DNA of 64,000 bases from Candidatus Oxydemutator sp. (lineage in GTDB: Bacteria > Pseudomonadota > Gammaproteobacteria > Poriferisulfidales > Oxydemutatoraceae). Position numbers and translations under genes: made by a program. The stretch is taken from positions 2,112,001-2,176,000 of the forward strand of contig OZ241883.1 of assembly GCA_965203445.1 (NCBI GenBank), read 5' to 3'. Positions 20,937-23,317 of this stretch are shown here, piece after piece; position 1 is the first letter of the stretch; each line of letters starts with the position of its first letter. Below the pieces are notes generated by a model. It did no database searches, was not told the origin of the DNA, and saw only the letters and a program-made list of their open reading frames with translations.

Positions 20937-20959
<23 letters not shown>
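19628..20959 (-). CDS. tilS: tRNA(Ile)-lysidine synthetase
   Basis: [10 protein letters not shown]-loop, [26 protein letters not shown]; follows accA. Confidence 0.93.
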
Positions 20960-21896
<937 letters not shown>

Positions 21897-21923
21897 CAAA
21901 GATAGGGAATTATATACCTAAAT

Positions 21924-23204
21924 CTACAGAGTAACCTGTAGATTAGAAGTATCCATTTGACGTTTCACAGGCAGTGCCGTGTCGGATGTATCTTTCGATA
22001 AATCCTTCATGGTCTTACCATTGCCTCCGCGTCCAGTAGCCCCATTCCCGGAGGCCTTCAAACTCAGTACAGATTCTCCCAGCTTCTTGATATTCAAGGC
22101 AGCGTTCCAATCCGCATTATCCCGATGACCGCAATCCGTACATACAAATACCGATTGCGATACTCTGTTCCTCTTGTCTATGCAACCGCACACATTGCAA
22201 GCTTGGCTAGTGTGCTTCGCACATACATAATTTACTTGGGTCTTGTATCCTATACATTGCTCTAACTTATGCCATCTTGTATTCAGTATCCCTCTATTCA
22301 ATCCTGACTTGGCCTTTACACTCTTGCCGGGGGCGGCAGCCGTGCCTTTGGCACTCCTGGTCATACCCTTGGTGTTTAAATCTTCCATATATATTACAGA
22401 ATAATTCCTTGCGATTTCTGCACTTACATGATGGCACCAATTAGTATGCCTCTGTTTTATCTTCCTGCATACCCTCGCATGGGAATGCCGGGCAAGCTCA
22501 TAACGCTTAGAGGGTCTCTTCCTGTATTTCCTACTTCCGCAATCCCTTCTTGCCATTGTCTTTTGATAGTGGCGCTTTTGCGCCTCTAATCGAGTAGTAT
22601 CGGGAACCCGATACACAATACCGTCGGAACATGTTATCTGACCTACATTCCTGTCTATACCTACCGCATTGTATTCACGTTCCACTTCCTTTTGTTCCAC
22701 TGCATAAACCACATATGCATACCAGTTCCCGCATTCCCTTTTGACCGTGCCCGATACGGGCTTTGCATCCGGATACGGATTATGACCTAGCACTAGAAAC
22801 TCACCCGTCTTCTCTATATACAGATGACGACCCCTTATCCGAAACAAACCCGATACCAGGGGAAAACTCTCAGGATGTACATACCTCGCATGAAACCTAG
22901 GCAGCCCGCCCTCTTTCTTGTAAAACTTCTTGTACGCCGTCTCTATAGGCTTCAAAGATAATTTTACTATATTAGCTGAGTATTCCTGCAACCAGGGTTC
23001 GCAGTGGCGACGTAGCAAAGTGAATTGCTTGCCAAGTGTGTAGTACCACGGCTTGCACCTTCCATACGCCTTATATTCATCCCTCAACTTACCCACAAAA
23101 TGGTTCCACACAAACCGACAAGCACCTGCCAATCCCGCTAACTTGCGGGCTTTGGCTTGCGTGCCGGGATGCACTCTATAACGGATTGTTCGATGTACCT
23201 TCAT
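21924..23204 (-). CDS. tnpB: RNA-guided endonuclease TnpB (IS605 OrfB family)
   Basis: HTH_OrfB N-terminus (YRVHP..GACRFVWN), RuvC-I GIDRN, RuvC-II MEDL, Zn ribbon CNVC/CTDC, RuvC-III NADWNAALNI; stop codon lies inside the TIR. Confidence 0.95.
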   Translation of the reverse strand: MKVHRTIRYRVHPGTQAKARKLAGLAGACRFVWNHFVGKLRDEYKAYGRCKPWYYTLGKQFTLLRRHCEPWLQEYSANIVKLSLKPIETAYKKFYKKEGGLPRFHARYVHPESFPLVSGLFRIRGRHLYIEKTGEFLVLGHNPYPDAKPVSGTVKRECGNWYAYVVYAVEQKEVEREYNAVGIDRNVGQITCSDGIVYRVPDTTRLEAQKRHYQKTMARRDCGSRKYRKRPSKRYELARHSHARVCRKIKQRHTNWCHHVSAEIARNYSVIYMEDLNTKGMTRSAKGTAAAPGKSVKAKSGLNRGILNTRWHKLEQCIGYKTQVNYVCAKHTSQACNVCGCIDKRNRVSQSVFVCTDCGHRDNADWNAALNIKKLGESVLSLKASGNGATGRGGNGKTMKDLSKDTSDTALPVKRQMDTSNLQVTL

Positions 23205-23212
23205 CACCAACC

Positions 23213-23240
23213 ATCATATCATATTCTTGTTCAAAATCAA
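23213..23240 (-). promoter_or_regulatory. Putative sigma70 promoter of tnpB inside the element
   Basis: TTGATT, 16-nt spacer, TATGAT with extended TG; 8 nt before ATG 23204. Confidence 0.55.
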
Positions 23241-23317
23241 GTACTTCATCACTATTCTGTAGATTTAGGTATATAATTCCCCAAAGATACTCGTCGGACG
23301 GAAACGCCAGCCGAATG

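Follow-up and report, generated by a model that had tools for sequence, protein, structure and literature searches.

Which transposase moves a tnpB gene that lies between terminal inverted repeats, and what would an RNA-guided nuclease do for such an element? This question is raised by a 1377-bp element in a 64,000-nt stretch of the genome of Candidatus Oxydemutator sp. (assembly GCA_965203445.1, contig OZ241883.1, positions 2,112,001 to 2,176,000 of the forward strand), referred to here as the window, in which it occupies positions 21905-23281 and carries one gene only, tnpB. TnpB, from which Cas12 descends, is also a compact nuclease for genome editing. Comparison of the element with its sister copies and relatives makes it quite probable, from sequence analysis, that it is a non-autonomous member of an IS1595-family (ISNwi1-like) lineage, the sole cargo of which is a working OMEGA module composed of TnpB and its omegaRNA.

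Architecture of the tnpB cassette and its sister copies

The initial annotation had described a tnpB gene enclosed by terminal inverted repeats (TIRs) and a target-site duplication (TSD), with no transposase of its own, and each of these features is present in the window (Table 1). The two arms of the inverted repeat, 21905-21933 and 23253-23281, are 29 nt long with 97% complementarity, the outer 26 nt being perfect, and the 8-bp duplication CAAAGATA abuts both ends with a match of 8/8. An extra copy of CAAAGATA at 22953, in the interior of the element, is due to chance. The GC content of the element is 0.44-0.49 versus 0.67-0.75 for the flanks. Contigs from two public runs of one sample span both junctions with zero differences, the sample being possibly the window's own source and thus not an independent support. 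As for the transposase, the 1287-bp open reading frame (ORF) of tnpB leaves no space for one within 1377 bp; the element is therefore a non-autonomous derivative and not an insertion sequence in the strict sense.

Elements of the IS200/IS605 type have no inverted ends and make no duplication, according to a 2026 review (PMC13565253), and the 26-bp perfect repeat and 8-bp duplication of the focal element do not agree with such an origin. Inverted repeats and a duplication likewise separate it from IS607 elements. With the IS1595 family it shares the 8-bp duplication, and it does not itself encode a DDE_Tnp_IS1595 transposase. The end sequence GGGAATTAT would fit ggnnatTAT, the putative consensus of ISNwi1-group ends.

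The protein is a member of the TnpB family, with scores above the cut-offs of PF07282 (45.5 bits, cut-off 26.3), PF12323 (32.4, cut-off 21), PF01385 (31.8, cut-off 30.5) and NF040570 guided_TnpB (185.2, cut-off 100); the score on NF038281 IS200_TnpB, 140 bits, is under the 425-bit cut-off of that model. The alignment with ISDra2 TnpB (8bf8) covers residues 12-378 (E 1.6e-19) and places the RuvC triad at D186, E276 and D367 and the zinc-finger cysteines at C338, C341, C357 and C360, in line with the intact RuvC acidic residues and Zn ribbon that had been claimed. The D-E-D triad and the four cysteines are kept in 48-49 of 49 family proteins. The ratio of nonsynonymous to synonymous substitution rates (dN/dS) among tnpB copies is 0.06-0.24 in 9 of 10 pairs, the remaining pair being near-identical; tnpB is under purifying selection. 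The conserved MKVHRT start corresponds to the ATG at 23204, the probable translation start, 77 nt from the left end of the element. The stop codon lies within the right inverted repeat, 19 nt from the end of the element and 27 nt ahead of the ATG of accA, the neighbouring gene.

The genome that contains the window (G000:C1) is a single contig of 2.38 Mb, scored 100% complete. A protein search found 13 near-full tnpB copies in it, the focal one included, with 54-80% amino acid identity to the focal TnpB and 0 internal stops. All 13 are bounded by inverted repeats with GGGAATTATATA-type ends: the outer 12-13 nt, GGGAATTATATA(C), are conserved among the copies, and the inner part is specific to subfamilies, yet matched between the two ends of each copy. 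Exact 8-bp duplications, each of a different sequence, flank 7 of the 12 other copies; in 2 the match is 7/8 bases, and in 3 it is poorer. The recurrence of the same architecture in these 12 copies rules out a chance origin. The further copies with the same ends and different duplications that the initial annotation had proposed to look for thus exist, as 13 copies in the genome and, relatives included, 46 distinct sites. We conclude that the cassettes of this genome are lineages of one element family selected for TnpB, and not the outcome of a single recent capture.

Reduced forms were also observed in the same genome. A decayed cassette at G000:C1:247602-248387, a 786-bp deletion derivative, keeps both ends and the RNA module described below and has no matching duplication. 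A 163-bp miniature element at G000:C1:113341-113503 has the same ends and no tnpB, and solo ends are found at G000:C1:1821047-1821072 and 2003495-2003520.

Conservation of the ends among sponge symbionts

Relatives of the focal TnpB were searched in one genome per prokaryote species, and the best 80 of 130 relatives were retained. Among these best 80, wherever the name indicates a source, the source is a sponge, and the groups include gammaproteobacterial groups, Rhodothermales, Thermodesulfobacteriota, Caldilineaceae, Anaerolineales, Dadabacteria and Spirochaetia. The inverted ends are retained in several phyla, by relatives as distant as about 36% identity. In a strict test, requiring the 12-nt core with at most 3 mismatches at both ends, both end cores were found in 50 of the 80 loci, and duplications of at least 7/8 bases in 28. 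An anchored search, to which the copies of five relative genomes were added, yielded 88 near-full loci with a pair of inverted repeats, and 46 distinct insertion sites whose duplications match at 7/8 bases or more. In a looser test the tip motif of the right end was present in 106 of 108 near-full loci, one of the two others being a truncated contig and the second an archaeal match of 28% identity; this motif is loose, with an estimated 0.15 or so chance matches per locus, and its matches in five loci below 35% identity were not counted. The ends are therefore held across a deep clade, as expected for the TIR-associated TnpB clade for which a phylogenetic check had been suggested. Longer TnpB-like genes, of 468-494 aa and 32-34% identity to the focal TnpB, were seen in a Thermodesulfobacteriota genome (G003, e.g. 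loci L161, L165, L169 and L172).

A resident IS1595 transposase as candidate partner

The DDE_Tnp_IS1595 profile (PF12762) has one match in the whole genome, of 151 bits; the same profile matched in 1 of 14 reference genomes. This transposase sits in a 2616-bp element (G000:C1:1978350-1980965) whose inverted repeat is that of the focal element at 24/26 bases, and which has its own 8-bp duplication, ATCAGAAA. The transposase, of 314 aa, scores 205.9 bits on NF033547 (cut-off 75). An autonomous IS1595 element with common ends, for which the initial annotation had asked, is thus present in the same genome. Its second gene encodes a 436-aa adenine-methyltransferase-like passenger with an HNH domain. 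The best NCBIfam matches of this passenger (locus L031 63..2349, outside the window) are under the cut-offs, and its C-terminal HNH domain resembles the HNH of IscB and Cas9 (E 1e-10).

Profile searches of the complete genome for the Y1 transposase (Y1_Tnp, PF01797) and for the IS607 transposase (NF033518) gave 0 matches each, the former search being positive in 6 of the 14 reference genomes. The sole plausible mover of the 13 tnpB cassettes would then be the resident IS1595 transposase, acting in trans. The proposal that a DDE lineage has taken up a TnpB gene and is mobilised in trans is supported by these data, with the trans step itself as a putative one.

The same partnership is suggested in the relatives. 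IS1595 transposases were found in 5 of 5 relative genomes tested, several with the same tips and 8-bp duplications, and of the 53 IS1595 loci examined, here and in related genomes, 23 proved to be clean elements that combine this tip with an 8-bp duplication. tnpB was found in none of 33 IS1595 loci examined. Conversely, among 124 tnpB loci a transposase is near tnpB at one place only, as a separate neighbour gene. The gene concerned is a frameshifted IS1595 transposase gene in a Poriferihabitans genome (L111 3181-4087, the same place as L173), about 450 nt downstream of the tnpB cassette and not inside one pair of ends with it. In a set of 21 related genomes, PF12762 is present in 7/7 with this TnpB and in 6/14 without it, a co-occurrence that is descriptive only, related genomes not being independent.

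The predicted omegaRNA extends into the right inverted repeat

A conserved module is found in the last 100-150 nt of the elements, the anchor search being positive in 49 of 56. With 47 distinct sequences aligned, covariation was tested for three helices: the hairpin P1, a long-range stem GGACG/CGUCA, and a pseudoknot between the loop of P1, GGGAAU, and the last six bases of the element, AUUCCC. The paired cells amount to 96.5%, compared to 28-61% when the partners are slid by 1-3 columns, and the covariation score of 0.241, against 0.107 in shuffles, was reached in 0 of 500 shuffles. Double changes number 15 and 19 at two pairs of the long-range stem and 7 and 1 at pairs of the pseudoknot, including loop GGGAGU with tip ACUCCC and loop GGGAC with tip GUCCC; 11 unpaired cells were counted at one pseudoknot pair. 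RNAalifold, run on a MAFFT alignment, gave two helices only, and the middle stems, visible by eye and poorly aligned, were not counted. The single-sequence fold of the focal RNA has a z-score of -3.28, its 5' part differing from the covariation-supported structure. An Rfam search of the element, with E up to 1, matched no family.

The segment from the conserved core to the tip folds into a terminal hairpin in 42 of the 47 distinct sequences (mean z-score -2.4), and the 3' arm of this hairpin is the inner repeat. Together, the pseudoknot with the tip and the hairpin of the inner repeat bring the scaffold to the last base of the element, so that the right repeat has two jobs. The right inverted repeat would therefore serve both as transposase site and as part of the predicted omegaRNA scaffold. 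In each copy the left inner repeat agrees with the right one, which in turn pairs with a hairpin arm that fits it, despite the single transposase of the genome.

These data bear on another origin of the cassette, namely that an IS200/IS605- or IS607-type solo tnpB (IS1341-like) landed by chance in an IS1595-derived miniature element, its ends and duplication being unrelated to tnpB. Solo tnpB elements of the IS605 type are common, and miniature elements that have these ends but no tnpB, the 163-bp copy among them, do occur in the genome, which would give this scenario some ground. However, it would require the same nesting again and again, in 13 copies with identities as low as 54% and in relatives with identities down to about 36%. 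Moreover, the scaffold covaries with the repeat tip and shares its terminal hairpin with the inner repeat, the margins of 19 and 77 nt are too small to hold separate IS605 ends, and the Y1 and IS607 transposases gave no match in the genome. None of the cases that would have spoken against the initial annotation was seen; nested IS605-type ends are absent, as the scaffold pairs with the tip of the inverted repeat itself. Chance nesting is already contradicted by this evidence and we regard it as highly improbable.

In the known TnpB arrangement the guide starts at the boundary of the element, and the extent of the scaffold predicted here agrees with it. Considering that the scaffold ends at the last base of the element and that a signal resembling a target-adjacent motif (TAM) is found directly 5' of the duplication, the guide is predicted to consist of the right-hand copy of the duplication and the flank that follows.

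A one-sided TAM-like signature at the insertion sites

The flanks were compared in 46 reconstructed empty sites, oriented by tnpB. The base just 5' of the duplication (position -1) is G in 32, A in 12, T in 2 and C in 0 of the 46, the background frequency of G being 0.24, and the mirror position has the complementary base in 4 of 46 (p 1.7e-9). Position -3 leans to A (24/46) and position -2 to T or G (34/46). In 23 transposase-bearing IS1595 copies with the same tips, G at -1 occurs in 3/23 in forward and 6/23 in reverse orientation, and C does occur (p ~1e-5). The AT-rich duplication is roughly symmetric and common to tnpB cassettes and autonomous copies; it looks like the preference of the transposase itself.

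Two other sources of the G at -1 were considered and rejected. A Shine-Dalgarno remnant, left when an element enters the spacer ahead of a start codon as the focal copy did at accA, does not account for it in general: starts of ORFs of at least 100 codons lie on the tnpB side in 9/39 sites and on the other side in 6/39, and the G persists in 22/30 sites that have no such start. That the G belongs to the inverted repeat as one more base was ruled out, since it lies 9 nt from the element, beyond the duplication.

The one-sided signal may instead represent the TAM of TnpB, since it sits where a TAM must be if the guide begins with the duplication. Furthermore, the element itself ends in C, the base that is excluded at -1, and an occupied site would for this reason be spared.

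The signature also bears on the possibility that TnpB is plain cargo, giving no help to the spread of the element and serving, for instance, the host or being directed at other DNA. Methyltransferases are carried by related "transporter" IS1595 elements, and the resident autonomous copy, with its methyltransferase and HNH passenger unrelated to TnpB, offers a parallel. On the other hand, a scaffold built into the transposon end ties the guide to the flank of each copy, as where TnpB serves its transposon, and the one-sided G is limited to tnpB cassettes and to the tnpB orientation. A plain cargo is thus unlikely.

Alternatively, TnpB might help to choose the site or orientation of insertion, for example if TAM-bound TnpB biased the DDE transposase, the G at -1 then arising at insertion. 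That the motif follows the orientation of tnpB and is absent from transposase-only copies fits this idea, a symmetric DDE synaptic complex explaining it poorly. Nevertheless, each guide comes from its own flank after insertion and could not have directed that insertion; the nuclease residues are intact, unlike those of the nuclease-dead TnpB relatives that act in RNA-guided transposition; and survivorship after homing or retention is a simpler explanation of the same data. Taken alone, site choice at insertion is decidedly unlikely.

Insertion site, accA and age of the insertion

The focal element is placed between the start of an ORF that we take from its translation to be accA, and a divergent ATPase-like gene. 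Lying directly before the accA start codon, the cassette cuts accA off from its former upstream region. accA is probably transcribed together with tnpB, and its translation may be re-initiated after the tnpB stop, as judged from the arrangement of the two genes. Upstream of tnpB, promoter-like sites are not in excess over shuffled sequence (2 observed versus 2.9 expected), and only its position speaks for a function of the site listed in Table 1.

In 3 of 3 genomes of the same genus, which have 84-85% identity in accA, a short intergenic region adjoins the accA start and no element is present; the empty allele that the initial annotation had proposed to seek in relatives is thus present. However, in a 4186-nt contig (run X5) of a relative of about 91% identity, with 37 differences in 397 nt of accA, position 21896 is joined to inverted-repeat-like sequence, and this closer relative may have a similar element at the same place of accA. 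The claim of a recent insertion holds with regard to the three empty sites and is weakened by the junction in the closer relative.

Among the 46 sites, AAAATG lies inside the 8-bp duplication in 5 (L011, L066, L078, L087 and L156), two of which, L011 and L078, from different genomes, have the identical 8-mer AAAATGTT.

Table 1. Coordinates of the tnpB cassette, its predicted RNA parts and the adjoining gene in the window.
Feature	Position	Strand	Basis
accA (acetyl-CoA carboxylase carboxyltransferase alpha), directly downstream of the element	20937..21896	-	ORF
Predicted guide region: right-hand duplication copy plus 12 nt of flank, coinciding with the first accA codons	21885..21904	-	inferred
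Target-site duplication CAAAGATA, tnpB 3' side	21897..21904	.	sequence
Terminal inverted repeat, tnpB 3' end (right end in tnpB orientation)	21905..21930	.	perfect 26-nt repeat
Predicted omegaRNA scaffold, at least 152 nt, overlapping the 3' end of the tnpB ORF	21905..22056	-	conservation and covariation
tnpB ORF, 428 aa from TTG	21924..23210	-	sole large ORF of the element; TnpB profile matches
Promoter-like site TTGATT-16-TATGAT, upstream of tnpB	23213..23240	-	promoter scan
Terminal inverted repeat, tnpB 5' end (left end)	23256..23281	.	sequence
Target-site duplication CAAAGATA, tnpB 5' side	23282..23289	.	sequence
TAM-like position, three bases 5' of the duplication in tnpB orientation (GAG on minus)	23290..23292	-	family logo; inference

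Discussion

The association of TnpB with DDE transposons is not new as a concept. In PNAS, Altae-Tran et al. (2023) reported six DDE-associated TnpB branches, DDE-1 to DDE-6, with inverted terminal repeats, and also solo TnpBs whose ends are almost the same, which points to mobilisation in trans (PMC10691335). IS630 (DDE-6) is the only family named in the text on these branches, and ISL2, IS630 and IS1031 are attributed to the same work in the corresponding part of the 2026 review (PMC13565253). In these portions of the two publications IS1595 is not named as a TnpB partner; in PMC10691335 it occurs only as an entry in a list of profile accessions of the supporting information (SI), and an IS1595 branch may be comprised in the set of Altae-Tran et al. 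(2023). In the part of the literature covered by our search, no paper linking IS1595 with TnpB was found. The novelty that the initial annotation assumed is therefore reduced by the DDE-associated and solo TnpBs with inverted ends published in 2023 (PMC10691335). As far as found, nothing is in print on the partnership with IS1595, on nuclease and transposase being kept strictly apart, on the interlock of RNA and repeat or on the TAM-like signature.

The focal family resembles the DDE branches of Altae-Tran et al. (2023), as described there (PMC10691335), in having TnpB between DDE inverted repeats with its 3' end at most 250 bp from the transposon end, and their solo TnpBs in having ends common to transposase-bearing copies; unlike in those branches, no element in the IS1595-type family analysed here carries both tnpB and a transposase. 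Fanzor1 offers a eukaryotic counterpart: inverted repeats within Fanzor1 guide-RNA scaffolds of TIR transposons were described by Yoon et al. (2023) in NAR, and Fanzor1, like the focal TnpB, is a TnpB-family nuclease that is the sole gene of a non-autonomous TIR/TSD element (PMC10711439). In contrast, the host here is prokaryotic, and for Fanzor1 the same source gives the duplication as predicted to be in the scaffold and no pseudoknot (PMC10711439), whereas the present data support a pseudoknot that involves the repeat tip and make the 8-bp duplication the most likely start of the guide.

Compared to the solo tnpB elements of IS200/IS605 (the IS1341 group; ISDra2), the protein family and a 3' RNA scaffold that reaches the element boundary are common, and as in ISDra2-type elements the last scaffold bases form a pseudoknot and the guide, here by prediction, derives from the flank. 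The inverted ends, the duplication and a DDE instead of a Y1 partner transposase are what distinguishes the focal element from them. Siguier, Gagnevin and Chandler are said to have described, in 2009, an IS1595 family with passenger genes ("transporter IS", ISNwi1-type). The elements analysed here resemble such ISNwi1-type IS1595 in their 8-bp duplication and AT-rich targets, probably in their GGGAATTAT... ends, in the NF033547-family transposase of the partner, and in the existence of cargo-carrying and transposase-less derivatives; they differ from the "transporter IS" in their cargo, an RNA-guided nuclease with its RNA fused into the end of the transposon, and in never having the transposase in the same element.

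Taken together, the data suggest a model that we put forward tentatively, at somewhat less than an even chance: the right end has merged with the TnpB guide RNA, and the cassette is a TAM-dependent homing or retention element, of which only insertions beside a purine-ending TAM would be kept or copied, or else TnpB biases the site or orientation of DDE insertion. In the mechanism that goes with our main interpretation of the cassette, the resident IS1595 transposase would insert the cassettes in trans into AT-rich 8-mers, and TnpB and the omegaRNA would be produced from the cassette. The omegaRNA would run past the element and take the duplication and adjacent flank as guide, and TnpB would require a TAM ending in a purine, mostly G and never C, directly 5' of the duplication. 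An empty site, composed of the TAM, a single 8-mer and the right flank, could then be cut, so that an emptied or never-occupied allele would be cleaved, and the occupied site would be spared, its right-hand duplication being preceded by the repeat tip ...TTCCC. Repair from the occupied copy would restore or copy the cassette, as shown for IS605 TnpB, and insertions without a TAM would be unprotected and lost more often, which would give the observed skew at -1. To our knowledge, this natural role of TnpB, bringing a transposon back to the site that it has left, has been demonstrated in IS605-type elements alone, the excision of which is scarless.

Several points weigh against this interpretation. 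The expression of the cassette, the 3' end of the omegaRNA and the guide are all deduced from the DNA. Beyond -1 the TAM-like signal is weak, and TnpBs of 36-100% identity are pooled in it, related insertion sites not being fully independent; the gene-start control covered 39 of the 46 sites, the other 7 being impossible to place. Regarding mobility, 3 of the 12 other genomic copies are without a good duplication, the inner repeats differ by subfamily though the genome has one transposase, and some cassettes may be immobile now or have been moved by transposases since gone. Additionally, a cut-and-paste DDE transposase already leaves a break at the donor site, and the benefit of TnpB homing is less obvious than for IS605; the 2026 review argues that this break is why the association of TnpB with DDE transposons is rare (PMC13565253).

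The family is nevertheless useful for the question of homing in DDE transposons, with its dozens of independent insertions, a single candidate transposase in a complete genome, an RNA interlocked with the transposon end and a TAM-like signature that excludes the element's own end. It also exemplifies a single design of mobile element that spreads among unrelated bacteria with a common sponge host. If the model is true, it would be the first evidence of RNA-guided homing that works with a prokaryotic DDE transposon and shapes its site spectrum. The model might then also explain how the family spread across phyla inside sponge microbiomes.

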